Shown here piece after piece: positions 85 through 20,119 of a stretch of DNA of 24,353 nt; the first letter of the stretch is position 1, and every line of letters starts with the position of its first letter. Position numbers and translations under genes: made by a program. The notes under the pieces are model-generated. The model was not told the origin of the DNA and did no database searches. It worked only from the letters and a program-made list of their open reading frames with translations. The DNA is from Candidatus Iainarchaeum sp. (GTDB lineage: Archaea > Iainarchaeota > Iainarchaeia > Iainarchaeales > DTGL01), in the NCBI GenBank assembly GCA_026413945.1, contig JAOAJX010000008.1, positions 1-24,353 on the forward strand. Direction: 5' to 3'.

Positions 85-870
85 GGCGGAATTTCACTGC
101 CAAATATGAAAATTGATTTTGCTCTGCAAACTTTACTATCTGATTATAAAGCAGGAAAATCTCTTGTAGTTTCAGCAAGGAATCTGGGAATAAAAGTGAG
201 CAAGAACTCGGTATTGGTTTCTGTAATTGCTGATAGCCATTTTAATCCTCAAAAATGGGGCATGACTGACCTAAACAAAGAGGAAAGAGGCCAGATGTCT
301 TTTTATACTGGCTATGTTGCTGTTGACAATATAGAAAAAATGAGCGAAGAGAAAAGCGTGAATTATATTATGGCTGCAAGAAGTCCCGGTGAGGTAATAC
401 ATGATATAATCTCAATTAAATTGTCACCGGACCTTCTCGCAATAGTAGCTTGCATAAAGCAATTCAAGGGAAATTGTGATGTTGGTCACATTGCCAAAGA
501 AAATTCCCTTGAATATAAAAACGGATCAGTGCTTGCTTACATTTTGACAAAAAATAATGCGAGGCCATGTGTTGAAACAACTGTCGTCGAAGAGATTCCC
601 GATAAGGTTGACCCAACCATAAAAACCTTCAAGGCATATGTGCCAGTTGCCAAACTTGAAGAACTATCCAATTGTGCTGATGTTGATTTTGTGAGCGGAG
701 TAACTGTAACAGGCATACAGCTTGGAATTTGCTGCATCCTGCTGCTTATTGTTTCTGCAGTATTTGCAATTTATCTGATATTCTTTGTTTATCTGAGAAA
801 GAAGGAAAAAGACAAGGTTGATAAGCTTTGGAATTTATTGGCTTTAAAAAGGCAGAAGGGGGAGCAATGA
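1..870 (+). CDS. 5'-truncated membrane-anchored protein: Gly/Pro repeat, two tandem subtilisin-propeptide (I9-like) domains, C-terminal TM helix
   Basis: Frame 1 is open from base 1 to TGA 868-870. Two similar ~93-aa units end in YTGYVAVDNIEKMSEEKSVNYI and FKAYVPVAKLEELSNCADVDFV. A hydrophobic stretch (ICCILLLIVSAVFAIYLIFFVYL) is followed by RKKEK. The domain call is motif recall, not a search. Confidence 0.7.
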   Translation, partial: GGDFNLPGGLPGLPGGDFNLPGGLPGIPGGISLPNMKIDFALQTLLSDYKAGKSLVVSARNLGIKVSKNSVLVSVIADSHFNPQKWGMTDLNKEERGQMSFYTGYVAVDNIEKMSEEKSVNYIMAARSPGEVIHDIISIKLSPDLLAIVACIKQFKGNCDVGHIAKENSLEYKNGSVLAYILTKNNARPCVETTVVEEIPDKVDPTIKTFKAYVPVAKLEELSNCADVDFVSGVTVTGIQLGICCILLLIVSAVFAIYLIFFVYLRKKEKDKVDKLWNLLALKRQKGEQ

Positions 871-3800
871 AAAAAGCATTTATTCTTGCATTGCTTTTAA
901 TCTTTTTTGTTAGCTTTCCAAATGCTAAAGCAGTGCCAGTAAGTGCTGCAGATTGTAGAGGAAATACTCTTACTTTAAAGGACAACAATTATGAATTTCA
1001 GGGAAATATTTCGTGTGTGAATGTAGTTATTTATGCTCAAAACCAGGACACAACAATTGATTGTAAAGGTGCAAAATTAGAAGCTTATAGGGTTTGGTAT
1101 TACCCAAAAGACGGACGTAAAATTTCTATAAAAAACTGCAAGTTTGTACCTCTTCGCGGATATTCTAGTTATAACTACCACCAATTCCTGGTAGAAAAAA
1201 GTTTTGGCTTAGAGTATATGAATAACACATTTGAGAATACTTATTATAACATTGTAAGAAAGTACTGGTACTCGGGAAAGATTGATATCGACCTTAACTT
1301 GGTTGATAATAATCTGTCGAACTCATACTTCCAACTGTATTTGTATGACTATTATACACAACAGCAAGAATTTAAGCTAAATTTAACAAACAACAAATTG
1401 AACGGTTCCTTATTATACATAAGTTTTTATAACTATTACAATCAATCAACTGGACCAAGAATTTTTGCCAACATTAATAAGAACAATTTTGTAAGCTCTT
1501 ATTTGGGGGTGGTGACATATCACTATTATAGCTCATCGCAGAGTGATATTTACAACAACATCTCGATTGTTGACAACAATTTTGAGTTATCTCAAGTATA
1601 TTTAATATATTACAATTATGGTCAATCTCTTAAAGATGTCAATCTCTATCTTGAAGTTAAAAGGAATTTTTTCAATACTTCTTCTCTTTATGCTTATAAT
1701 TACAGCTACAGATATCCGGCATTCAGGAAAACAATCAGACAAATGCAATCATCCTTGTTGGAATTTTCAGAAAACGATTTTAATATGGCTAATGTACTGC
1801 TATACCTTTACCCAAATAGTTGGTTTAATGACTTAAACAAAATTTTGATTTTCACAAAAAACAAGCTTTATGGCACAAAAATAGATTTTGCAGATTACAG
1901 ATATATACAAAATGGCAAAATTGACTTCTCCTATAATGATGTAAATAGATCTAATATTAACCTTGGTTACTGGAATTACTGGTATTGGTATTATTGGAAT
2001 TGGTGGTATTACCAGTGGTATTATGCATGGTATTACTGGTATTATTATGGAATAACAATTGACCCAAGCATTGGTGAAATTAACTTTATCGGTAATAAAC
2101 TTGAGAAAAGTAAGCTAGATTTACTCGGTTACTGGCCTTCCTCATACTCAAACTTGACAATAAGTGATAACGTTTTCAAAGGATTTTATTGTCCACCAAA
2201 TTTGAACGAAAAAGAATGTAGCAGCTATTATAAAAACATGAGAGGAATATATTGGGTTGGCCTAAGCCAACTAACTATTCCGCCGAGAAACAACACAATT
2301 ATCTCAAATAATGAGTTTTTTGGAGATCTCAATTATGATGGATCAGCGATAACTCTTATGCTTGACCCATATGGAGGCCCATACTATGGGGGTCCTTATG
2401 ATTACTGGTGGATGTGTTATTATTGGGGCTATTGTGGTTGGTATTACTATTACTATTACTATTATTACTATCACTATTATTACTATTGGTATTACTACTA
2501 TTACTGGTATTGGTATTACTACTATTACTGGTATTACTACGCTCGATACTACCCATATAGCTATTGGTATTACTACTATTACTACTATATTTACTGGTAC
2601 TATTACCACTACTATTACTACTGGTACTACTATTACTACTGGTACTACTATGGCTATTACTACCGCTGGTATTACTGGTATTACTATCGATACTACTACT
2701 ATTACTACTGGTACTACTACCGCTATTACTACGGCTATTATCCATTCTTTGACATCTGGGCGAAAGGTGTTTTCGAGATTTCAAACAATTCTTTTAGGGG
2801 CTTTAACAGTGGGCTTGAGACATTGGCTGCGGCAGATGGGCAAACTGCCATAATAAAGAACAATACATTCGAAGACAACAAATATGGCATCAAATATATC
2901 AGTAGCTATGGAACAATGCTAGTTTATAGCAACATTTTTGCTAATAACGATGTTGGAATTGGCGCAATAAGTGGCACAGCTGGTGCTACGCCGTATTTCC
3001 CATATGCTTATCCGTCGGATGGCCCAATCTCTGTATATGACAACCGCTTTGAGAATAATCGCAAATGGGCGATAAAGTATGTGGGTGCTGATATATGGTA
3101 TGCGCCATATTATGGTGCATCAGAGGATGGCATCTACAACTATGATCCAACAAATAGGCGTTCTGGACCGATGTTTACGAGGCAAGAAGTGGATGATTAT
3201 CTGAAGAACTCAAAGACTATGCTTATCTGCATGGCAAATAATGACTTCACTGCAATGCCAAATACTGGCAAGAACGCAAAGGAAGGAGCAATAAGAAGAA
3301 TATCTGAGGCTGCAAACTATAATGGCCAATGCTTTGGCTTTTGTAGCGGCGCAATAAACAGTCCGCCAATCGCTGACTTTGATTCAACAACAGGAAAGGG
3401 TGTTTCAAACCTGACAGTTCATTTCTATGATCGATCTTACGATAAAGATGGCAATATTGTGTCATGGCAATGGGACTTTGGTGATGGCACTTATAGTACA
3501 GATCAGAACCCAGCGCATACCTACACGAGCAATGGCCCTTTTAACGTTACCCTAACAGTTAAAGATAATGGCGGAGCAAAGAATAGCACTCAGAAAAAAA
3601 TAACGCCTTACGATGTGGCTTCCATAAATGAGATTTTGGTGCAAGATATATCTGCAGGCGAAAGCGCTCAGATAAGTGTTACATGCACAAAAGACCTGGA
3701 AGGTACACTCAAAGTGTACTTTGATCCGCTTGGCTCGAAAACAAAGGTTTATGAGTCAAACTACAAATGTAACTCAGGTTCTGTTTCTGTTGGTCCGTTG

Positions 3801-3995
3801 ACAGAAATAGGTGTATACCTTGTAAGATATGACTTAAGCGTACCTGCAAACAAATGCACCAAATGCAACGCGGAGAAAGAGTTCATTGTAAAGAGAAGTG
3901 CTGTTACGACAGCATCAGAAGAGCCAATAGTTGCAGTTGCTGCTTTGCTTATGGTTTTTGTGGTTTTAACAATTAAAAAAAGTGTATGTAAATAA
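867..3995 (+). CDS. Secreted surface protein: right-handed parallel beta-helix repeats, Tyr/Trp-rich inserts, PKD domain, C-terminal membrane anchor
   Basis: ATG 867 overlaps the upstream stop (ATGA) and follows GGGGGAG. Signal peptide MKKAFILALLLIFFVSFPNAKA. Repeated I-x-N-N-x-F strands (ISNNEF, ISNNSF, IKNNTF, VYDNRF). PKD signature WQWDFGDG...NPAHTY...VTLTVKD at about 3357-3605. C-terminal hydrophobic helix followed by KK. Confidence 0.85.
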   Translation: MKKAFILALLLIFFVSFPNAKAVPVSAADCRGNTLTLKDNNYEFQGNISCVNVVIYAQNQDTTIDCKGAKLEAYRVWYYPKDGRKISIKNCKFVPLRGYSSYNYHQFLVEKSFGLEYMNNTFENTYYNIVRKYWYSGKIDIDLNLVDNNLSNSYFQLYLYDYYTQQQEFKLNLTNNKLNGSLLYISFYNYYNQSTGPRIFANINKNNFVSSYLGVVTYHYYSSSQSDIYNNISIVDNNFELSQVYLIYYNYGQSLKDVNLYLEVKRNFFNTSSLYAYNYSYRYPAFRKTIRQMQSSLLEFSENDFNMANVLLYLYPNSWFNDLNKILIFTKNKLYGTKIDFADYRYIQNGKIDFSYNDVNRSNINLGYWNYWYWYYWNWWYYQWYYAWYYWYYYGITIDPSIGEINFIGNKLEKSKLDLLGYWPSSYSNLTISDNVFKGFYCPPNLNEKECSSYYKNMRGIYWVGLSQLTIPPRNNTIISNNEFFGDLNYDGSAITLMLDPYGGPYYGGPYDYWWMCYYWGYCGWYYYYYYYYYYHYYYYWYYYYYWYWYYYYYWYYYARYYPYSYWYYYYYYYIYWYYYHYYYYWYYYYYWYYYGYYYRWYYWYYYRYYYYYYWYYYRYYYGYYPFFDIWAKGVFEISNNSFRGFNSGLETLAAADGQTAIIKNNTFEDNKYGIKYISSYGTMLVYSNIFANNDVGIGAISGTAGATPYFPYAYPSDGPISVYDNRFENNRKWAIKYVGADIWYAPYYGASEDGIYNYDPTNRRSGPMFTRQEVDDYLKNSKTMLICMANNDFTAMPNTGKNAKEGAIRRISEAANYNGQCFGFCSGAINSPPIADFDSTTGKGVSNLTVHFYDRSYDKDGNIVSWQWDFGDGTYSTDQNPAHTYTSNGPFNVTLTVKDNGGAKNSTQKKITPYDVASINEILVQDISAGESAQISVTCTKDLEGTLKVYFDPLGSKTKVYESNYKCNSGSVSVGPLTEIGVYLVRYDLSVPANKCTKCNAEKEFIVKRSAVTTASEEPIVAVAALLMVFVVLTIKKSVCK
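1968..2048 (+). repeat. 27-codon Tyr/Trp tract (14 Y, 9 W)
   Basis: YWNYWYWYYWNWWYYQWYYAWYYWYYY, built mostly from TAT/TAC/TGG codons. Confidence 0.95.
2403..2741 (+). repeat. 113-codon poly-Tyr/Trp low-complexity tract (81 Y, 15 W by hand count)
   Basis: Imperfect TAY/TGG trinucleotide array, in frame with 867..3995 and with no stop codon. Confidence 0.95.
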
Positions 3996-10101: not shown

Positions 10102-10638
10102 TTATTTTACCTTTGCCATTGCATCTATGCAGCCGCGCTCGACACAATACGAGATCCTTTCCTCAATGAGTCTGCCTGTAGTTTCTTCACTGCCAAAGCC
10201 AACTATTGGGTTGAATTCACCTATGAAAGTAGTTGGAACGCCGCTTGCGTTAACTCCAAAGGCCTTTGCAAAATTGTAAAATAGGGCTTTATTTTCTTGG
10301 TTGTGCCATACTTCGTATGCTTTTACAACAAGCGTTGGGTATTTTTGTTCCATTTTCTCAAGGAATGGTTTTTGCTTTGCGCAATGCGGACAACCTTCAC
10401 CATAAAAGAAATAAAGAATAACTTCGTTTTCAACTTTATTTTCATCTTTAGTTTCTATGGCTTTTTCTTCAGGATTTTGGGTTTTTTGGGCTGGAGTTGG
10501 CTCATATGCCTGTCCTGTTTTTCCATTTTTTGCAAACCCAATGGTAGCATAACCTATCATCTGATTTCTCATAATGGCAAATATAAAAACAATTACAATG
10601 GCTAAAATAACGCCAAAAGCAATGGCTTTAATTTTCAT
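10102..10638 (-). CDS. Membrane-anchored thioredoxin/glutaredoxin-fold oxidoreductase (CPHC)
   Basis: N-terminal TM helix, linker, FFYGEGCPHC and cis-Pro loop GVPTTFIG. ATG 10638 follows GAGGGCGG. Confidence 0.88.
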   Translation of the reverse strand: MKIKAIAFGVILAIVIVFIFAIMRNQMIGYATIGFAKNGKTGQAYEPTPAQKTQNPEEKAIETKDENKVENEVILYFFYGEGCPHCAKQKPFLEKMEQKYPTLVVKAYEVWHNQENKALFYNFAKAFGVNASGVPTTFIGEFNPIVGFGSEETTGRLIEERISYCVERGCIDAMAKVK

Positions 10639-10752
10639 AAAACCGCCCTCTTCAAAATAAGCAAAAAATACTTCTTTATATAAAAAAGACCAATGCAAAA
10701 GTTTATTAAAGGGTAATGATAAAATATATAAGAAAAAAATTGTGGTGGTAAG

Positions 10753-11466
10753 ATGGAGCGTGTAAAAACAGGAATTGATGGTTTGGATGAGCTTTTGCAG
10801 GGTGGCATACCCGAAGGTTCTGCTGTCCTCATCTCAGGCGGCGCAGGAACAGGAAAAACAATTGCAAGCATGCAATTTGTTTATAATGGCGCATCTCTTT
10901 ACAATGAGCCAGGAATATATGTGAGCTTAGAGACAAATCTGAAAAACATTATTTGGAACATGGAGAGTTTTAACTGGGATATAAGAAGCTTGCAAGAGAG
11001 TAACTTGATGAAGATTTACCGCCTAAACATAAGCTATGCAAAAACCCGCGAAGAGGTAATTCAGCGTGTTGACGAGGAGCTAAACACAATTTCGCAGCTA
11101 GTGAAAGAGATAAATGCAAAGCGCCTTGTTGTTGACTCAATTGCCTCTTTTGGCGTTTGGTTTGACAGCCCAGGCCTTATAAGGGCAATTCTATTTGAAT
11201 TTGTTGACAAGCTCAAAAATATGGGCTGCACAACTATGCTTACAACAGAGACGCGAGGCGGAAGGCGCGAGTTTTCAGCATATGGTGTTGAAGAGTTCGT
11301 TACTGATGGCGTAATAGCACTTTATTTTACTCCACCACACAGAAGCATTTTTATAAAGAAAATGCGAGGCACAGACCACAGCAAGATTCCGCATCCTTTT
11401 GAAATTACGGAAAGAGGCATAGTTGTAAACCCACAAGACAGAGTGCTTTGGGAATCAATAAAGTAA
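10753..11466 (+). CDS. Single-domain KaiC/RAD55-family RecA-superfamily ATPase
   Basis: RVKTGIDGLDELLQGGIP, Walker A GGAGTGKT, Walker B RLVVDS and KKMRGTDHS. RBS GGTGG. Confidence 0.93.
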   Translation: MERVKTGIDGLDELLQGGIPEGSAVLISGGAGTGKTIASMQFVYNGASLYNEPGIYVSLETNLKNIIWNMESFNWDIRSLQESNLMKIYRLNISYAKTREEVIQRVDEELNTISQLVKEINAKRLVVDSIASFGVWFDSPGLIRAILFEFVDKLKNMGCTTMLTTETRGGRREFSAYGVEEFVTDGVIALYFTPPHRSIFIKKMRGTDHSKIPHPFEITERGIVVNPQDRVLWESIK

Positions 11467-11502: not shown

Positions 11503-11697
11503 TTAGAATAGGGATTTTATTCTCATTGCACTGAGCAAAAGCGATATTACGAAAATAATAAATATGAGCACAATTCCTTGCATAAGTGCCTCTTCCCATG
11601 AGACTTCCTTCTTGTATGCAAACTTTGCACTTACCTTCACAGCCCAAAGCATAAGGCCTAAGCTCAATGCCATGCCAAAAAACTCAGGAAAGTTCAT
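11503..11697 (-). CDS. Small two-TM hypothetical membrane protein
   Basis: 64-aa ORF with two hydrophobic segments, filling the intergenic gap. Confidence 0.6.
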   Translation of the reverse strand: MNFPEFFGMALSLGLMLWAVKVSAKFAYKKEVSWEEALMQGIVLIFIIFVISLLLSAMRIKSLF

Positions 11698-11783: not shown

Positions 11784-13850
11784 TTAACCATGGTGTGCGT
11801 GATGCCTATTTTTGCTTCTTGGCATGCTTACAAAACCATGCGCTTTGAATTTTCTTGCTAACAATATTTGCCTTCTTTTGAGGGCAATAAGTTTTTTCTG
11901 GCGATCTCTTGCGCTAACAAATGCGCAGTACAATGGGACGAAAGCTAAGGTAATCAAAACTACCAGAAGTAAAATGAAATTTGTGCTTAAATCCACGCCT
12001 CTTTCGCTTTCGCTAAAGGACTCTATCTCTTCTTCTAAAAGACCTATCTTTAAAGACAATTGGACTAGTTTAGTGCTTGGAGATTCTAACTCGTTTCTTT
12101 GAATCTGAGCTTCAGCAGAAATAAGCTCATCTTCCAGTTTTTTGGCTTCATCTTCGATTTCAGAAACTTCAAATTCTTTAGCTTTTAAAGCCCTAATTTT
12201 GCTTTTTACTTTTTGTATTCTTTGCTTCAACTCAAAAATAGTTAGTGAATAATCTGTTTTTTCCTTTTGGGCAACATAAAAAGCGCACATTGCTTCCCTC
12301 TGCTGGAAATTTGAATCTGCGCTAATTGTTGAAAGCTTTGCCCTGAAAAAGTAATTGCCGCTCTTCATAGCCTCAGAAATAGTTTCTACTATGTGCTTGT
12401 CAGCTTTTCCACCCGGTTTTATTGCAATTGGTGTGGAGGATGAAACGTATACTTTGCCATTGCTGTCCTCTATCGACCATGAAAGCATGATGTCAGTATA
12501 ATAAGTACCAACATTATAAGCAGAAACATCAAAGTAAGCAGTAGTGCCCGCGGTTACAACAGGGGTTGTGCAAAGCGCTGATAAATCATACCTCAGCTCA
12601 CCACCGAGATCAATAAGCTTGGTCTCCGTAGCAAACTTAGTTGATTTGTCTATTGAGTAAACATTGACCGACATTACATGCAAGCCAGATGCTTCCGGTG
12701 TCCATGGCAAAAGCATTGAAAATCTTTGCTTTGAGAGCGGCTCAACACCCAAGTAAGTGCGCTCGTCTATATATTCTATCTCAGCCTCCTGCTTTATTAC
12801 TACAGAGATGACAATATCAATCTTTTTATCTGAAAGGTTTTCTATAATCCCGCTTATAAAGCTAGCCTCACCAACTTTCAATGGCTCAACCTTTAATTCT
12901 GAAATTTTTACTTCTGGCTTAACAAATGGCTCAGGCGTTTGTTGTGTAGGTGTTGGCGTTATAGTTATTTGGCCGCCACCGCCTCCGCCACCACCCCCAC
13001 TGCCGCCCCCGCCGCCCGGAATACATTCCCCACAGTCCTTTGGGCAGTTTTTGCAGTTTTCACCAGCTTCACAAATTCCATTGCCGCAAACCAAAATTGA
13101 TGTTACCCTGAATTTTCCATTATAATCAGCCGCATTCTTTCCCGAAGAAAAAGTTACATTGTAGCGGTATTCTCCCAAGATGTTTTGGGCTGTGAAAGTA
13201 TATGCATAGTAACCAGGTGTTGATAATTCTACAAGCGTTGCTTTATTTACAAAAACATTGCCTGATGGCTGCCAAATAGTTATCCTTCCTTCTGCATGTT
13301 TAAGTGGCTGCGAAGATACACTTGCAAAGAACATTAATGTTGCGTTTTCGCCAGGAGCAAATACATTGTTTCCAACTGTGGTAATACTTATTTCATAGGT
13401 TCCACAATAAAAGTATTCGCTTGCTATGGCAGTATTTTTATTTTCGTCGCTTGCAGTAACATATAAAGTGTATACCCCGTTTTGTTCAAATTTAAAACTT
13501 CTAATGTAATTGCCATCACCGACTTCGTAAAAGTCCAATGTTTGAGTGCTGCCATCCGGCTTAAGCATGTATCCCAAAACATCTAGGTCCTCAACGCCAT
13601 TGCCAGCAGCCAAGGCCTTGATTTTAATAATTTTTGTTTCACCGAGGTTTGGAGTAAAGTTGGCATCAATATATATTGAGTAATAGCTTACCGCTTCAGA
13701 ATACCATGTCAGAACAGTGCTTTCAGCTGTGCCCGAGATCCCAAAATCAAAAAGGAGTGATATTATGAGCAGCAGCGTCAGAACTGTAGCCACTTTTCTT
13801 AATTGCATGTCAATAATAAGGTCTTGCCATTTAAATTTTTTTTGTTTCAA
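11784..13850 (-). CDS. Secreted, C-terminally membrane-anchored multi-Ig-like surface protein (candidate fibre base/anchor)
   Basis: Signal-like N-terminus, beta-rich domains, CGNGICEAGENCKNCPKDC, a poly-Gly plus Pro/Thr linker, CARDB-like repeats, a coiled coil, TM FILLLVVLITLAFVPLY and a basic tail. The start is uncertain (TTG 13850 or ATG 13808). Confidence 0.8.
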   Translation of the reverse strand: MKQKKFKWQDLIIDMQLRKVATVLTLLLIISLLFDFGISGTAESTVLTWYSEAVSYYSIYIDANFTPNLGETKIIKIKALAAGNGVEDLDVLGYMLKPDGSTQTLDFYEVGDGNYIRSFKFEQNGVYTLYVTASDENKNTAIASEYFYCGTYEISITTVGNNVFAPGENATLMFFASVSSQPLKHAEGRITIWQPSGNVFVNKATLVELSTPGYYAYTFTAQNILGEYRYNVTFSSGKNAADYNGKFRVTSILVCGNGICEAGENCKNCPKDCGECIPGGGGGSGGGGGGGGGQITITPTPTQQTPEPFVKPEVKISELKVEPLKVGEASFISGIIENLSDKKIDIVISVVIKQEAEIEYIDERTYLGVEPLSKQRFSMLLPWTPEASGLHVMSVNVYSIDKSTKFATETKLIDLGGELRYDLSALCTTPVVTAGTTAYFDVSAYNVGTYYTDIMLSWSIEDSNGKVYVSSSTPIAIKPGGKADKHIVETISEAMKSGNYFFRAKLSTISADSNFQQREAMCAFYVAQKEKTDYSLTIFELKQRIQKVKSKIRALKAKEFEVSEIEDEAKKLEDELISAEAQIQRNELESPSTKLVQLSLKIGLLEEEIESFSESERGVDLSTNFILLLVVLITLAFVPLYCAFVSARDRQKKLIALKRRQILLARKFKAHGFVSMPRSKNRHHAHHG

Positions 13851-13878
13851 TAAAACAGCAAATTGCCAATAAAATAAA

Positions 13879-14826
13879 CTAGTTTACCTTTATGATCAGC
13901 CTAAAGTGTGGCCTGTTTATTGAAATGCCACTGCTCGCTGCATCAAAGTATAACATTTTGTATTTCAAAAGCCACTCTGTTCTTACCTCTTCAGGCGGCA
14001 TTACGGGGTCTACTCCTAAGACATATTCGCCTTTTGGTGTATTTTCTTTTACCTTAACCCTTACTTTAATCGCTCTTGCCCAATCTTTTCCGAATTTAGG
14101 ATATGTTGGTGAAAGCAGAAAGACAGGCTCATCGAATGTAACATCGAAATATTTGCTTACTTCTTCAGGGTTTTGGACATTGAAGATTCTGCCATTAGCG
14201 TCAGCTGATGTTGCAGGGTAAGTTGGTGCAAGCTTTACGCCTTGATAGGTTTGTATACCCCAGCCAGTGTGCCAGAATGTCTTCGCCTCAAATTCAGCCC
14301 CAGGATATGTATTAACCCATATATCTGCAGGGTATGCACCCCAGCCTATGACACCCCAGCTTGAAGGATTCGGCTCTTTCCACCAGCGCAGCCCCGCAGC
14401 CTCAAAGTTTGGGTAAAATTCAGGCTGCTTATAATATTCTTCAGTAAAATATGTTAGATCTTTCCATCGCCCTACTTCAAACATATATGTCATTGTTCCA
14501 AAATCATCAGGTATTGGCGGCAATTCAGCGAATACCTCCATTGGTATGCCATATTTTTCCCTGTGCGGTCTTCTCATCTCTTCAAAGGCCCTTTCTCTGC
14601 TAACTTCTTGCATGAGCTTCTCAAATTCAGAAATTTCACTCTTGTTTGGGGTTTCATTTTGTGTTGGCGTTTCAACTGGCTCAATTGTTTTTTCATACGG
14701 TGTTGGTGTAAGGTCCGAATTTAAAGTTGCAAAAGGAACATTGCGGAAATTTCCGCCATAATATAAAACTAAAAAAACACCAAATACAACTATAACAGCC
14801 AAAGCCAAAACATATGTTTTCTTCAT
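13879..14826 (-). CDS. Membrane-tethered protein of unknown family, paralogue A (candidate assembly chaperone)
   Basis: N-terminal TM helix, Pro/Thr linker, QPEFYP, TYQGVKL and PTYPKF motifs. Clearly homologous to 19262..20119. Confidence 0.8.
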   Translation of the reverse strand: MKKTYVLALAVIVVFGVFLVLYYGGNFRNVPFATLNSDLTPTPYEKTIEPVETPTQNETPNKSEISEFEKLMQEVSRERAFEEMRRPHREKYGIPMEVFAELPPIPDDFGTMTYMFEVGRWKDLTYFTEEYYKQPEFYPNFEAAGLRWWKEPNPSSWGVIGWGAYPADIWVNTYPGAEFEAKTFWHTGWGIQTYQGVKLAPTYPATSADANGRIFNVQNPEEVSKYFDVTFDEPVFLLSPTYPKFGKDWARAIKVRVKVKENTPKGEYVLGVDPVMPPEEVRTEWLLKYKMLYFDAASSGISINRPHFRLIIKVN

Positions 14827-14887
14827 AAGTAGGTTAAAAAAAGCGAACAATATAAAAAGCTAACTTATAAACCACTAAGATTAACTT

Positions 14888-14920
14888 AAAAATAAAAAAA
14901 TAAAGAAGGAGCCGAAGCCC
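14888..14920 (-). terminator. cUUCGg hairpin plus U-rich tract after the 212-aa gene
   Basis: The minus strand reads GGGC-TTCG-GCTC then CTTCTTTATTTTTTTATTTTT, starting 7 nt after the stop. Confidence 0.6.
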
Positions 14921-14927
14921 GAGAGAA

Positions 14928-15566
14928 TTAACTAAAGCTTTGTACTGCTTCGGTTTCCAGCGTGTCTTGTGTTGTGCCGTATGGCATTCCTGAAAAATCA
15001 GCTGCCAGGCAGATGCCAGCACTACTGCTTATAGCCAAATCAGCAATTATCTGTTTTGTGGTATTCCCTATTGTTACACAAGCTGTTGTAGTTGGTACCG
15101 TATCATCATCTGTGCCGCTTTTTGAACATGTCGCTTCCCAGCCACCCATGCCGTTTGTTCCACAATGTGTGCCGTTTGAAAGCCATGCCTTCAGTGTTAC
15201 TCCCGTTTCTAATGTAGTTGTTATTCTGGCATTTATGTCAAATGGAACGTTACCCTGATTATGTATAGTAATTGCTACTTTGTTTGTGCCATCTTGGCAT
15301 GAACTTCCGCCACTTGCAGCATTATATGGCGGTATTTTGCTTGCTGTGCCGTTTATTGGAGTAGCGCCTTCAAGAGCGTTTGACTCAACAAAATACATTG
15401 CTGATGTGCTACAGCTCCCACCGTAAGTTAATGCGTGCGTTACATTTGCTGGAATTACCCATGTCAATGTTGTCTGCTGCGTGTCAGCATAAACCATTGA
15501 AAGAGCAAGCAATAGAGCAACTGCAACAGATAGGTAACCTATCAGCTTAACTTTTATTTCCATCAT
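14928..15566 (-). CDS. Secreted Thr/Gly/Ala-rich beta protein with 6 Cys (candidate major fibre subunit)
   Basis: Signal peptide ending VYA|D, no membrane anchor, strong RBS AAGGAGGT and its own terminator. Homologous to the C-terminus of 15704..19252. Confidence 0.8.
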   Translation of the reverse strand: MMEIKVKLIGYLSVAVALLLALSMVYADTQQTTLTWVIPANVTHALTYGGSCSTSAMYFVESNALEGATPINGTASKIPPYNAASGGSSCQDGTNKVAITIHNQGNVPFDINARITTTLETGVTLKAWLSNGTHCGTNGMGGWEATCSKSGTDDDTVPTTTACVTIGNTTKQIIADLAISSSAGICLAADFSGMPYGTTQDTLETEAVQSFS

Positions 15567-15615
15567 GAGGAGACCTCCTTGGGTGGTATTTACCGCTATA
15601 GTATGTGTGAACTTA

Positions 15616-15631
15616 TTTATATATTTTACGC
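15616..15631 (-). promoter_or_regulatory. BRE/TATA-like promoter for the leftward arm
   Basis: The minus strand reads GCGTAAAA-TATATAAA about 50 nt upstream of ATG 15566, within the divergent gap. Confidence 0.5.
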
Positions 15632-15703
15632 TTATTATTCAATTTTGGTGCAAAAGCAATTTGCAAAGCAAAAAAAGCCCAGTGGTGTAGTGGTGTTTTT
15701 GAA

Positions 15704-18700
15704 ATGTGTTTAATGCATTTAGATGAAAGGGCAAGATCGAGCTTTTTTGCCGTATCTTTGTTTCTTCTGCTGTTTACCCCACTTTTAACTGTCTTTAGTG
15801 ATGTTGCAAATGATAATTTGGTTGTGCAAGCCCCATTAGAAGATCTTGCGGAAAAAGAGAAGAAGGTGCCTGAAATAGAGATTTCAATAGTTTCCCCACT
15901 CAATAGCGAATCAGTGAGTGGCTTGGCTGTTGTCATAGCTGTTATACAGCCAATAAGTGAGGTAACTTCAGCTTGGTTTGAGATAAACGGAAAAGAACTT
16001 GGCGAGCTTTACAAGGAGAAAAATTTTTCATCTGATTTTAATACTTTCGCATTTGTTAACGGTGCGTACACCTTTTCAGTTCATGCTTGTATTGGGGATT
16101 ATTGCTCATTTGAAGCCATAGAAATTGAGATTAATAACCAAGAACTCCAGCCAACTCCCGCAGAAAGTCCCACAGTTCATCAAGATAGTCAAACACCTGA
16201 GCCAACTCAGCAAGCAACAACTACGCCAACAGTTGATGAAAATCAAGCGCAGATACCTAGCCAGCCATCAGAACAAGAACCAGAAAAAAAATATTCGATC
16301 AGGCCATCAAACATATTTTCAGCAGCAGTCTTTTATGATGATAAAAACGAGCCTATTGCTTCGGGCACTGATACTGTTTATGTGCCAGCTGGCACATACA
16401 ATGTTTCGGTATCTTTTTTCGAGTTCACTGTTTCAGAGATAAAGATTGCTCAAGCCTTAATTGAATCTGATGCAATGCTGTTTGAAGTAGATGGCAACAT
16501 TGATGTAAATAGCATTACTTTTAATGACCAGAACTTTTACCTTAAAGAAGTAATAGCTTTTATGTCTGGGCTTACTTTTAATGAAGGCTCTGCAACCTTT
16601 AGGCTCCCGCCCTTTTCTGACGCAATTTTTGTCTGCGAAGATTGGGATTTCCAAAAGAAGGAATGCGGGGCTAACTTTACTCTTCTTGCAGAGGTAAGTG
16701 GTGCTGAAGCAACCATTCCCTTCAGCCAAGGCCAAAAGGCCTTTGTCTTTGCTGAGAAATATGAGGAAGAAATAGTTCCGCCGGACTTCAATGCTGATGA
16801 TTTCGAGAAAGATTTGCCAGAGTCAAAGATAAAAAAATCTGGGAAAAAACATTTTTTACTCTCAAAGCCACGCCAAAAATACTTGGCAAATGAAATGCCT
16901 GTTTTTGAATTCCAGGCACTTAATGATATAAATGAAGCTGCTGATGTTGAAATAGAAGCATACCTCATTTTTCCTGATGGCACAGAAACCCAGATTGAAA
17001 TGAAAAAGATACAAAAAAAAGCAAAAGGCCTTTTTAATATAATTGTTCCTGTTCCTAGAAGCTTCAAGGCTGGCAGGTATAACTTAAAGGTCAAGATCTT
17101 CGACGGTAATGAAGTCTCTGAGCATTCATCTTCTTTTGAGTGGGGCCTTGTTGCAGTTAATACAGAGAAGAGCATCTACGCACCAAACGAAACAGCAGTT
17201 TTTCACATCGTTGTTCTTGACCGCGAAAGTTACGGCGTAAGTGGTGCTGAAGTAAATCTTGGCGTTTTGTTTCCCGATGGTGAAACACAGACAATTTCTA
17301 CAATAGATGGCACAATAGCTGAAACAACATCAGCAGGCGTCTACATCGGCGAAATGAGAGTTGGTGGCGAAGGCATTTACAAAATTATGGTTCAGGCTAA
17401 AGCCCAGAATATCGATGCGGAAATACATAGCTCCTTTGAAGTAAGGCAGAATGTTCCCTTTGAAATAATCAGGCGCGCAGCAACAAAGATTGATCCTGCT
17501 GTGCAACCGAATAAGGTTGAAATATTTATAAAGGCTTCCGATGCTCAGAAAAAAATAACTGCCAGGGAATTCGTGCCAGCGGAATTTGAAATAGAGAAAA
17601 ACAAAAATTTTTCAATCAAAACCAAAGGCAAAGAAAAAATAATTGAGTGGAAAGACGTTGAATTCAATGCCGATGGGGAGGCCAAATTGACTTACTACTA
17701 TTCAGTGCCAGATAGAAAGCCATGGCTTTACAATATAGGGCCTATCGAAATCGATTACAAAGCTGGTGCTTTTACAGAAGCCAGAGCATGGATGATAGCA
17801 GTCGACGCCAATCCCACAACAATATTTTTCTATCGCCGCTCTGCAGATTGGGTGCCAAGAGAACCGATGCCCAATGCAGGTCAACTTCCTCATTATTTGT
17901 TGTCTTCATCATGGGCCGGCTTTGGTATGAATGACGTTGCTGGCACCACGGCTCAATGCCATAATAATCCATCTCCTGGGCCAACTGGCTCAGGTGCGGT
18001 TGCTTTAGCTGGCTTTACGTCACCGCCACTCGTAACACAATCAATAAGCGCCACAACATGGAGGATTACTTCAGATATGAATGAAAGCGCAGCTAATGAC
18101 AACGCTTATCCATATACAATTCTTATGAAATGGAACAGAAACGATACTCCAGGCACAATCATTGTTTCAGAGCGGCGAATCAGCGGTAGTGAGCTCACAA
18201 CGTCAATACGCAGAGACAGCGTATCAGTAACTGGTAGTGCTGTTACTTTTAACAGAGGTGACAAGCTTTACGTTGAACTCGATGTGAATGCTGTTGCTGG
18301 CAGCACTATTGTAGGTACTGTTTGCTTTGGCGGAAATAATGCTGGAACAAGAGATGGCAACATAATATCGCCAAGCATCCGTCTTGCCGGCAATCTCGAT
18401 ACAGCAATAGTCTCACCACAGAACAATTCTAAAAAGGTTATAAATACGGATTTTGATGTGAATGTCAGAGGCACATGCATAAATTATTCTTGTGGTGATA
18501 CTAATGTCACATTAAGGTACTGCATTAATCCTGACAGTGGCTGCTTACAATGGCTTGACATGAATACTGACCCAAACAGTCCGCTTTACATCTCTTCCGG
18601 CAGTTATTTTAGAAGAGATGATCTGCTCGATGTCTCAGATACAAACTATTTTGTATTTACTATAAAAGGAACCCAAACTGGCAAATACACTATAAGATCA

Positions 18701-19252
18701 AAAATAGATTCTATATGGAGCGAAGACATAAACTATTCAAATAATAGCAATGGTGACATAAATGTTACAATAAAATTGCCACCAAACTATGCTTTCTCAC
18801 TTTCTTATCCAGCTACCGGCTGTACTTATGGTAAAGGGAGCATTGATGAAGACAGCAGCTGCGATAGGGCTTACTTCGAGCCAACAGATCTTACAGGTCT
18901 TTCAGACCAAAACAAAGTGGATCCACAAGGCCAAAATTCATCAACCCCCTTTTTCGTTTATGATAACCAGAGCACAGGGGAAAATGACATGAATTTTACA
19001 CTGCATCTAAACTCTGCGCTGCCAAGCACACTTAAACTAAAGGTGTCGCAAAGCTATAATGGCTGGTACCTTACTTGCTCAGGCGATCCAGCTTCCAACT
19101 GTGTGGAAATAGATTCCACACCGAAGAATATTGGCAAGGCAATATATAGCACAGGCACCAAAGATCTCAATATTTTTATTTTTGCGGACTTTATTGGAGC
19201 TGGTGTTGGTACCACTGACAGAAATGCAATAAGCACAAGCATTGAGAGCTGA
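15704..19252 (+). CDS. Large secreted multidomain surface protein (Ig-like and MG2-like domains) ending in a subunit-like domain (candidate tip adhesin)
   Basis: Signal peptide, Ig-like domain, P/T/Q linker, WGLVAVNTEKSIYAPNETA (MG2-like) and no C-terminal TM helix. The last ~158 aa align with 14928..15566. Confidence 0.8.
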   Translation: MCLMHLDERARSSFFAVSLFLLLFTPLLTVFSDVANDNLVVQAPLEDLAEKEKKVPEIEISIVSPLNSESVSGLAVVIAVIQPISEVTSAWFEINGKELGELYKEKNFSSDFNTFAFVNGAYTFSVHACIGDYCSFEAIEIEINNQELQPTPAESPTVHQDSQTPEPTQQATTTPTVDENQAQIPSQPSEQEPEKKYSIRPSNIFSAAVFYDDKNEPIASGTDTVYVPAGTYNVSVSFFEFTVSEIKIAQALIESDAMLFEVDGNIDVNSITFNDQNFYLKEVIAFMSGLTFNEGSATFRLPPFSDAIFVCEDWDFQKKECGANFTLLAEVSGAEATIPFSQGQKAFVFAEKYEEEIVPPDFNADDFEKDLPESKIKKSGKKHFLLSKPRQKYLANEMPVFEFQALNDINEAADVEIEAYLIFPDGTETQIEMKKIQKKAKGLFNIIVPVPRSFKAGRYNLKVKIFDGNEVSEHSSSFEWGLVAVNTEKSIYAPNETAVFHIVVLDRESYGVSGAEVNLGVLFPDGETQTISTIDGTIAETTSAGVYIGEMRVGGEGIYKIMVQAKAQNIDAEIHSSFEVRQNVPFEIIRRAATKIDPAVQPNKVEIFIKASDAQKKITAREFVPAEFEIEKNKNFSIKTKGKEKIIEWKDVEFNADGEAKLTYYYSVPDRKPWLYNIGPIEIDYKAGAFTEARAWMIAVDANPTTIFFYRRSADWVPREPMPNAGQLPHYLLSSSWAGFGMNDVAGTTAQCHNNPSPGPTGSGAVALAGFTSPPLVTQSISATTWRITSDMNESAANDNAYPYTILMKWNRNDTPGTIIVSERRISGSELTTSIRRDSVSVTGSAVTFNRGDKLYVELDVNAVAGSTIVGTVCFGGNNAGTRDGNIISPSIRLAGNLDTAIVSPQNNSKKVINTDFDVNVRGTCINYSCGDTNVTLRYCINPDSGCLQWLDMNTDPNSPLYISSGSYFRRDDLLDVSDTNYFVFTIKGTQTGKYTIRSKIDSIWSEDINYSNNSNGDINVTIKLPPNYAFSLSYPATGCTYGKGSIDEDSSCDRAYFEPTDLTGLSDQNKVDPQGQNSSTPFFVYDNQSTGENDMNFTLHLNSALPSTLKLKVSQSYNGWYLTCSGDPASNCVEIDSTPKNIGKAIYSTGTKDLNIFIFADFIGAGVGTTDRNAISTSIES

Positions 19253-19261
19253 TGTGGTGAT

Positions 19262-20119
19262 ATGATAAAAAAATTTGCTTTCAGAGGCCATGAAAAAAAG
19301 CTTATTGTGGTTTTATTTGCATCTATGGCTGTTATATTCCTTTTTTTGTTTTTAGTTCCAGATAAAAAAATGACTGCAAATGTTATTGTTTCAAATCAAG
19401 TTGAAAGAGCAAATGACAAAACTTCCGCTGAGCAAACAGTTGATAAAGTCACCCCAGATACAGACCTTACAAGCCAAAATCCGATTTGGCAAATGCGCCT
19501 TAACTATGGAATTCCCTTAAGCGTTTTCGAGAACCTTCCTCAAGTGCCACATGACTTTAATGCTATAGTTTCACTTATGCACCGCAACGCTTATACCAAC
19601 TATGACTTTTTTTCAGAAAGATATTTTCTCCAACCTGAGTTTTACCCTTCTTTTACAGATACGGGCCTAATTTACTGGCAAAACCCAGATCCTAAACATT
19701 ATGCTGTGGCCGGCATTGGTTTCTTCCCTGGTACACAGCAAATAAAGGTTAAAAAAGGTAATTATTCTAAAACTAAAATTTTTTTGCACGCCGGCTTCGG
19801 AGTAAGAACGTATCAAGGCATAAAAATAAGTGCCTTTTTCGTTGATGATTGTAATGGAATTTCTTTTGAGCTGCCCAAAAAAGATTTTTTGATAGGCCCC
19901 AGCTATCCAAAATTTGATTCTCAATGGGCATTAGATATTCCAATAAAGATAAAAGCCAGTGAAAACACAGTAAAAAGCAATTGTGAGCTGAAGTTTAGGA
20001 TTGAAAAACCCTCTGAAGATAACAGCATAAAATGGCGCACAGCTTATGGAAAAAAATATTTTGAGACGGCAGAAGCCGGCGCAATAAATTCTACAAGCAT
20101 AACAATAAAAATAGAGTAA
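19262..20119 (+). CDS. Membrane-tethered protein of unknown family, paralogue B (candidate assembly chaperone)
   Basis: N-terminal TM helix. YGIPLSVF, QPEFYP, TYQGIKI and PSYPKF are shared with 13879..14826. Confidence 0.8.
   Translation: MIKKFAFRGHEKKLIVVLFASMAVIFLFLFLVPDKKMTANVIVSNQVERANDKTSAEQTVDKVTPDTDLTSQNPIWQMRLNYGIPLSVFENLPQVPHDFNAIVSLMHRNAYTNYDFFSERYFLQPEFYPSFTDTGLIYWQNPDPKHYAVAGIGFFPGTQQIKVKKGNYSKTKIFLHAGFGVRTYQGIKISAFFVDDCNGISFELPKKDFLIGPSYPKFDSQWALDIPIKIKASENTVKSNCELKFRIEKPSEDNSIKWRTAYGKKYFETAEAGAINSTSITIKIE

Follow-up and report, generated by a model that had tools for sequence, protein, structure and literature searches.

A conserved five-gene cassette of small-genome archaea is a candidate donor-strand surface fibre system

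Chaperone-usher pili (Fim/Pap/Csu) combine a tip adhesin that carries a C-terminal pilin domain with donor-strand logic and a terminator subunit. A usher-free variant is the Elr pilus of Enterococcus faecalis, in which, as described in its report, ElrD polymerises via the first ~15 residues of the mature protein, ending in a conserved phenylalanine, ElrE acts as a membrane-anchored, fold-completing chaperone, ElrA forms a tip that joins a variable payload to a further pilin domain at its C terminus, and ElrB contains little beyond a donor strand and a membrane anchor (bioRxiv 10.64898/2026.10.17.759780). According to the same 2026 report, this experimentally backed Elr/WxL system is confined to Bacillota (bioRxiv 10.64898/2026.10.17.759780). 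A part list like that of Elr/WxL has been proposed for the Pam pilus of a Candidate Phyla Radiation (CPR) bacterium, also described in 2026, which comprises the membrane-anchored paralogous chaperones PamC and PamD, a tip pilin, and the membrane-anchored terminator PamR with an extra N-terminal strand (PMC13278184). TapA, an accessory protein of TasA fibres, contributes a complementing strand from its N terminus, which is followed by a macroglobulin-like sandwich, and the archaeal proteins AbpA/AbpB, AbpX, CanX, and the thread subunit Saci_0406 are described as polymerising by strand donation, either chaperone-free or with assembly unknown (PMC9245690, PMC12518558, PMC9715654); the Discussion of the Elr report places Tat (twin-arginine translocation)-dependent pili in the same category (bioRxiv 10.64898/2026.10.17.759780). 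Here, we describe a five-gene cassette at positions 11,784 to 20,119 of contig JAOAJX010000008.1 (24,353 nucleotides, hereafter the window) of the archaeon Candidatus Iainarchaeum sp. (assembly GCA_026413945.1; 0.95 Mb, 92% complete). By analogy with the systems above, we give about an even chance to the possibility that it encodes a Sec-dependent, ATP-independent surface fibre assembled by strand exchange.

All five open reading frames (ORFs) proposed in the initial annotation were confirmed at their positions. We refer to their products as the subunit, A, the anchor, the big protein, and B, names that denote candidate roles. The minus-strand arm starts with the subunit, a small secreted protein of 212 residues (14928..15566) with a signal peptide (residues 1-27), a mature part spanning residues 28-212, six conserved cysteines, and four N-x-S/T sequons. 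The gene directly downstream encodes A (323 residues; 13879..14850), which consists of an N-terminal transmembrane (TM) helix, a linker rich in proline, threonine, and glutamate, and a conserved ectodomain. The arm ends with the anchor (688 residues; 11784..13850), in which a signal peptide is followed by immunoglobulin (Ig)-like β-sandwich domains, a cysteine-rich knob with a glycine-rich linker, a coiled coil, a C-terminal TM helix (~residues 625-645, nt 11916-11978), and a basic cytoplasmic tail; because its orthologues point there, the true start of this gene is likely the ATG located 14 codons downstream, at 13808. The plus-strand arm encodes the big protein (1182 residues, secreted; 15704..19252), composed of a signal peptide, an Ig-like/MG2 region (Pfam MG2 domain at residues 485-564, E 1.3e-9), a variable middle part, and a C-terminal subunit-type domain of ~165 residues. 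Its orthologues range from 383 to 2775 residues, with a conserved C terminus. Directly downstream of the big gene, both in the window and in orthologous loci, lies the gene for B (285 residues; 19262..20119), which carries an N-terminal TM helix, a short linker, and a conserved ectodomain of ~230 residues.

In the fibre that we consider, all five proteins would cross the membrane by means of their N-terminal signal or anchor sequences, and three of them would form structural parts. The 212-residue protein, the candidate major subunit, would be the repeating unit of the shaft, with its mature N-terminal β-strand, in which a conserved aromatic residue lies 7-10 positions past the cleavage site, completing the fold of the neighboring unit, as strand donation does in TasA, Elr, and Pam fibres. 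The 1182-residue protein, the candidate distal tip or adhesin, would join by its C-terminal copy of the subunit domain and expose its variable payload at the distal end. The 688-residue protein, the candidate terminator and membrane anchor, would provide a strand only, followed by the Ig-like stalk, coiled coil, and membrane helix, and would thereby plug the last unit and tie the fibre to the cell. A and B, candidate membrane-tethered partners or chaperones, would each hold the product of the gene just upstream, the subunit in the case of A and the C-terminal domain of the big protein in the case of B, until it is handed on. The genes with their export signals, the shared domain, the paralogy of A and B, the shared N-terminal motif, and the conservation of the pairing and of the cassette are seen directly. 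By analogy, we infer a subunit fold with an open groove, polymerisation, a chaperone role, the polarity of the fibre, and a role in attachment, and attachment to a host in particular is purely conjectural.

The initial annotation had likened the layout to the small, large, and tethered proteins of WxL loci. The likeness extends to the operon logic, as the cassette holds a gene in the chaperone position, a C-terminal domain in the candidate tip, and a base protein with a donor-like N terminus and a membrane anchor. As far as the Elr/WxL system is described in its report, it shares with the cassette a small secreted subunit whose conserved N-terminal strand contains an aromatic residue, a large protein with a variable payload and the same C-terminal domain, a membrane-anchored partner beside the subunits, and a base protein combining a strand with a membrane anchor; neither has an usher or an ATPase, and in both many loci are devoid of a tip or anchor. 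In contrast to Elr, where the partner is held by a C-terminal helix and the base is a 13-kDa LPxTG protein, the partner described here is tethered N-terminally and occurs as two paralogues, the anchor is a stalk of ~650 residues with a membrane helix, sortase is absent, and the host is an archaeon. The architecture of Pam, taken from the text of its description, resembles the cassette in the small-genome, episymbiont-type organism, the two tethered paralogues, the tip, the membrane terminator, and the cysteines, which are paired in Pam pilins. However, the Pam chaperones are PapD/FimC-like by fold and have C-terminal helices, while the Pam pilins consist of two domains, and the donated strand is the linker strand that joins them (PMC13278184). 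Because Elr/WxL and Pam share the same gene logic, they raise the prior for a fibre. The tip adhesin with a C-terminal pilin domain, the donor-strand logic, and the terminator also liken the candidate fibre to chaperone-usher pili, from which it differs by the lack of an outer membrane, an usher, and a PapD-family chaperone.

The first line of evidence comes from the domain shared by the subunit and the big protein. The initial annotation had regarded the 212-residue protein and the last ~165 residues of the 1182-residue protein as one domain, and the homology was established through intermediate sequences. Direct comparison of the two proteins by BLASTP was weak (E 0.018). A profile-to-sequence comparison by hhalign gave a probability of 21.5% (E 0.001), and a profile-to-profile comparison gave 57% (E 1e-4, 71 columns). 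An exhaustive profile search recovered just 86 cluster representatives at E<=1e-3 among 1.84 billion proteins. Using a hidden Markov model (HMM) of the big C terminus built from 16 sequences (E-values with Z=1e5), we found 17 stand-alone subunit-family members of ~190 residues that matched it at E<1e-4. The best intermediate, P0062, matched this HMM over nearly its whole mature length (1.8e-13) and the subunit HMM at 2.6e-22; a scan of the genome contigs with P0062 gave no match. When 17 subunits were aligned jointly with 17 intermediates and 14 big C termini, the alignment was colinear from the second strand to the C terminus, with common columns that include Cys, Gln, Asn-x-Gly, and Trp/Phe-x-Ala-Asp-Phe. 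In the window, this domain occupies residues ~1020-1182 of the big protein (nt ~18761-19249, plus strand). Other long proteins also end in it, namely, P0086 (1123 residues), P0071, P0080, P0091, and P0097; no fusion of the domain with the A/B or anchor families was found among 30 long family members.

The second line concerns A and B. Their paralogy, suggested in the initial annotation, is clear from BLASTP (E 3e-43, 32% identity over 225 residues), and each carries one N-terminal hydrophobic helix. The proposal that a tethered paralogue directly follows each domain-bearing gene turned out to be general, as 71 of the 93 A/B genes lie on the same strand and within 400 nt downstream of a gene ending in the subunit-type domain, and many of the 22 genes outside this rule are located at contig ends. 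A tethered partner gene beside nearly every subunit-type gene, together with an anchor that is an integral membrane protein, sets the cassette apart from the archaeal relatives of TasA as they are described in the papers cited above. The one-to-one pairing also favours a non-polymeric surface display, in which A and B would be permanent membrane docks, the big and small proteins would stay in 1:1 complexes, and the 688-residue protein would be a separate stalk that binds the small protein by edge-strand pairing. We regard such a display as rather unlikely.

The best-conserved part of the subunit family is the mature N terminus (residues 28-60), with a peak at residues 31-39 that encloses residues 32-39 of the window protein (nt 15450-15473, minus strand). 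This pattern fits the predicted fibre, whereas a display leaves unexplained why conservation should peak at this strand. The initial annotation had remarked that the predicted mature N terminus of the anchor mimics the first strand of the subunit. The 688-residue anchor carries the x-T-W motif of the small protein at its own mature N terminus, in the form T-x-L-T-W (nt 13701-13718, minus strand), and we found that the pattern extends to its orthologues. In all anchor orthologues inspected, the signal peptide is followed, 6-13 residues on, by a tryptophan within an alternating stretch rich in threonine and serine. Of 55 subunits, 41 had the strict three-residue motif after a hydrophobic N terminus, as did 17 of 29 anchors; nine further anchors, examined by eye, have the tryptophan preceded by a different residue. 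By comparison, just two of the 86 A/B proteins and two of the 21 big proteins contained the motif. In the genome of the window, a loose version of the motif was found in 12 of 726 ORFs with a hydrophobic N terminus, and only in the subunit and anchor genes did it follow a cleavage-like site. Alignment of the subunit and anchor N termini by hhalign gave 93% (E 3.5e-7, 46 columns), a value that overstates their likeness because the aligned span takes in the signal peptides. As far as can be judged from these sequences, the aromatic motif is confined to the two proteins for which the model calls for a donor strand, which fits the fibre. In the big proteins of the window's lineage, the equivalent strand has an aliphatic residue at the position of the aromatic, as would be expected for a non-donating tip. 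A display, on the other hand, does not account for the recurrence of the motif in the anchor alone at the same distance from the cleavage site. Right after its motif, the anchor shows sub-threshold Pfam matches to MG2, Filamin, and YtkA, and in this it resembles TapA and AbpB as described in the literature; all Ig-like matches of the anchor, like those of its orthologues, are sub-threshold.

The third line is the conservation of the cassette as a whole. Among 215 genomes of the phylum (G000 included), we found the subunit in 40 and A/B in 44; the big protein was detected in 49, and the anchor in 98, with numerous anchor matches being weak and limited to a short cysteine-rich stretch. Reading the tables side by side, the 40 genomes with a subunit contained A/B in 40, the big protein in 38, and the anchor in 39 cases. 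All matches but one fall in a single order of small-genome archaea. Co-occurrence of the five genes elsewhere had been set beforehand as a test of the proposal, and finding it provides strong support. Of 20 loci fetched because they had matches, 10 show the co-directional order big-B-subunit-A-anchor, another three share the divergent layout of the window, a single locus is convergent, and the remaining ones are partial or variant. The mirror-like divergent layout emphasized in the initial annotation is thus real in the window, but it is not the norm of the family; since the usual order is co-directional, the layout of the window is a local rearrangement, by inversion, of the co-directional operon. 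When the A/B alignment was used to scan genomes of named species, 49 loci were recovered, eight of them on the same contigs as before; five further loci in named records of DPANN archaea have all five genes, and some loci labelled Woesearchaeota hold the big protein, A/B, and the subunit. Named relatives of the window proteins bear labels such as Iainarchaeum, Micrarchaeota, and Burarchaeum. One record titled 'Chloroflexi bacterium' (L054) contains a full cassette with 60% identity to the A protein of the window, and its title is probably a binning error.

The number of subunit-like genes also varies. The genomes of genus g73 have three to seven matches each to the subunit profile, and in locus L051 (G179:C1:157500-164500) and its relatives in this genus, three to four subunit-like genes stand in tandem ahead of just one A/B-type gene; most of the proteins encoded by these arrays are ~400 residues long and carry an insert of ~200 residues in the middle of the domain. 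Such arrays with a single A/B gene are left unexplained by a display of docked 1:1 complexes.

Several observations weigh against a strand-exchange fibre. Some concern the strand itself, as P0086, P0091, P0097, P0071, P0080, and P0061 all keep the first strand, with its tryptophan or phenylalanine, in cis directly before the domain. Because long family members do so, the N-terminal strand may be an ordinary part of a closed fold, and the same feature favours a display. This argument is tempered by TasA and AbpA, whose monomers are described as self-complementing as well (PMC9245690, PMC12518558, PMC9715654). Others concern the extent of the cassette: many loci labelled Micrarchaeota contain only a subunit and one A/B gene, with no anchor or tip recognized by the HMMs used. 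These minimal two-gene loci are explained just as well by a permanent dock-and-cargo pair, as the display would have it.

A and B, moreover, show no signal of a chaperone family, which likewise suits a display. In a Pfam scan of 23 members, nothing scored below E 0.03, PapD_N appeared in one member at E 0.14, and neither DUF916 nor DUF3324 matched at E<=1; PapD_N was also absent from the 92%-complete genome of the window. In the ESM Atlas, feature matches of the A/B homologue P0027 were all below 0.85 and gave weak Ig-like leads. In an unrooted FastTree phylogeny of A and B from 13 loci, all 13 B sequences grouped in one clade (support 1.0) that also held three A sequences, and for this reason, we do not claim two clean orthologue groups.

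Family searches with the subunit point the same way. The subunit family had no match to WxL (PF13731) at E<=1, and the ESM Atlas feature score between the subunit homologue P0004 and a WxL cluster was 0.83, below the level that counts; together with the DUF916 and DUF3324 results, this separates the cassette from Elr/WxL at the sequence level. With TasA, as described, the subunit shares a Sec signal peptide cleaved by type I peptidase and the build of a ~200-residue, β-rich protein that would donate its N-terminal strand. It differs from TasA in its six conserved cysteines, in the lack of a dedicated signal peptidase gene, and in the lack of a Peptidase_M73 (PF12389) match, which was found neither for the subunit nor for 46 family members at E<=1, nor over the cut-off in any of the 215 genomes of the phylum. 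A low-confidence ESM Atlas model (predicted local distance difference test 0.57) of P0004, which is 59% identical to the subunit, had camelysin/TasA-family clusters as its nearest neighbors (TM score 0.49-0.55), a lead only, and the feature clusters nearest to P0004 were unnamed archaeal proteins of ~190 residues. The sole match of the subunit family to the Fimbrial family came from one member (E 0.0075).

The distribution of the cassette also counts against the fibre. It is patchy: of 58 near-complete genomes of the phylum, 18 contain the cassette, whereas the six other genomes of the window's genus all lack it, and it is decaying in the closest relatives of the window. Among the decayed copies (G052:C8, G053:C3 = L048, and G057:C36 = L047), one has a big gene interrupted by an in-frame TGA, one retains nothing but the anchor and part of B, and one has lost A and encodes a subunit shortened to 102 residues. 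The cassette is accessory. The same data bear on an envelope lattice of the SlaA/SlaB kind, in which the anchor would be the stalk and the big and small proteins would make up the outer sheet. The build of the anchor, with Ig-like domains, a coiled coil, and a C-terminal TM helix, speaks for such a lattice, and we take it to resemble that of SlaB. An essential envelope layer, however, should not be lost so easily, and the low counts and broken copies make a lattice highly improbable. An essential surface layer was accordingly rejected on account of its patchy distribution. A phage or mobile element was rejected as well: no relatives of the subunit were found in viral contigs, and the cassette is flanked by housekeeping genes encoding GrpE-like/DnaK/DnaJ proteins, a thioredoxin-like protein, a KaiC-type ATPase, an aminotransferase, and an alcohol dehydrogenase.

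The initial annotation had recognized none of the families, and for the three core families, no match to a characterized family was found in Pfam, NCBIfam, or the PDB sequences. The 323-, 212-, and 285-residue proteins received no Pfam or NCBIfam name, also when every member of the family alignments was scanned, and a search of PDB sequences with profiles of the subunit and A/B families gave nothing below E 0.4. Because the families are unnamed, little can be excluded for a secreted binding or enzymatic system, for example, one for substrate capture, with the A/B ectodomain acting as enzyme or receptor while the shared domain would bind carbohydrates or another ligand; a weak CBM13-like match in the big protein (E 0.008) could be read in its favour. 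However, the invariant residues of A/B (mostly aromatic residues, Pro, and Gly, besides Gln and one Glu) show no recognizable catalytic set, and the loci examined have no conserved transporter or enzyme gene in the cassette. We consider such a system improbable.

The absence of known assembly machinery, reported in the initial annotation, was borne out: among the 15 window ORFs scanned, there was no type IV pilus ATPase, PapD-like, sortase, SipW-like, or usher gene. The genome has seven T2SSE-family matches, all on other contigs (C11, C15, and C18). No SipW-type signal peptidase family was detected among these 15 ORFs or in the conserved cassette, and the anchor, which ends in a TM helix and a basic tail, has no LPxTG motif. 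A type IV pilus was rejected, as the signal peptide of the subunit is of the ordinary kind rather than class III, its mature N terminus is polar instead of hydrophobic, and the locus contains no ATPase.

Taken together, the donor-strand fibre put forward in the initial annotation is partly supported. We place it near the midpoint because the groove, the strand swap, and the chaperone role are drawn by analogy and because of the strands kept in cis, the lack of likeness to known chaperones, and the two-gene loci. A more far-reaching reading is that the cassette encodes the first chaperone-assisted donor-strand-exchange pilus of Archaea, of independent DPANN origin, built from families unrelated in sequence to WxL/DUF916, PapD, or Pam (the latter compared by description only), and used for cell-to-cell or host attachment. 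This we offer tentatively, with less than even confidence.

The noncoding parts of the locus are compatible with strong expression of the subunit. The two arms are separated by 137 bp (15567..15703) that, when the sequence was read directly, proved A+T-rich with a TATA-like stretch; this interval presumably contains the promoters of both arms. The subunit ATG is preceded by a strong ribosome-binding site (GGAGG) 6 nt upstream, within 15567-15580. Downstream of the subunit gene, the interval 14851..14927 (minus strand) has oligo-T runs followed by a TATA-like box ahead of the A gene, which suggests that the subunit gene is partly its own transcription unit. Together, the strong ribosome-binding site and the oligo-T runs fit a major subunit that is expressed separately and strongly.

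A sixth gene lies 3' of the anchor gene in 10 of 15 loci examined (L034-L052) and is absent from the window. Its product, of ~80-105 residues, combines a TM helix at the N terminus with a conserved Arg/Tyr-Ser-Asn motif and a coiled coil. A conserved Leu-Leu-Gly-Leu-acidic motif forms the cytoplasmic end of most anchors. Both the sixth gene and this motif are missing from the window, L047, and L048, and this joint absence hints that the sixth-gene product and the anchor motif interact inside the cell. In the window, the position downstream of the anchor gene is taken by an ORF of 64 residues with two hydrophobic helices (11503-11697, minus strand), which is nearly identical in the same-genus locus L048 and bears no relation to the sixth gene found elsewhere. 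A thioredoxin/TraF-like protein (10102-10698, minus strand) and a single-domain KaiC-type ATPase (10753-11466, plus strand) are encoded between the cassette and the gene for DnaJ. A further large surface-type protein of 1055 residues, with a right-handed β-helix region and a PKD domain, is encoded at 828-3995 (plus strand).

We found no description of the cassette in the literature on DPANN donor-strand or TasA-type systems or on archaeal membrane-anchored chaperones, a search that did not extend to the supplementary family lists of the Elr, Pam, cannula, and archaeal bundling pili papers. The kind of system has been known since 2026; what is new are the families, the tethering by an N-terminal helix, the pair of paralogous partners, the large stalk embedded in the membrane, and the occurrence in an archaeon. 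Three unnamed protein families are now given a context, and the pairing supplies a rule for finding more loci, namely, a gene ending in the subunit-type domain followed by an A/B-family gene. If the fibre is real, archaea would gain a first candidate pathway of assisted strand donation, in which every subunit-type gene has its dedicated tethered partner and the fibre has both a tip and a terminator in the membrane. It would also be the third case, unrelated in sequence, of an usher-free design with tethered chaperones, after Enterococcus and CPR bacteria (Pam again being compared by description only). On the more far-reaching reading of an independent origin, this route would have arisen three or more times in cells with a single membrane that have small genomes or are Gram-positive. 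DPANN archaea are believed to spend their lives attached to other cells, and little is known of how they do so. A surface fibre whose tip protein varies strongly, ranging across loci over the lengths given above for the big protein, would be a concrete candidate for how they attach.

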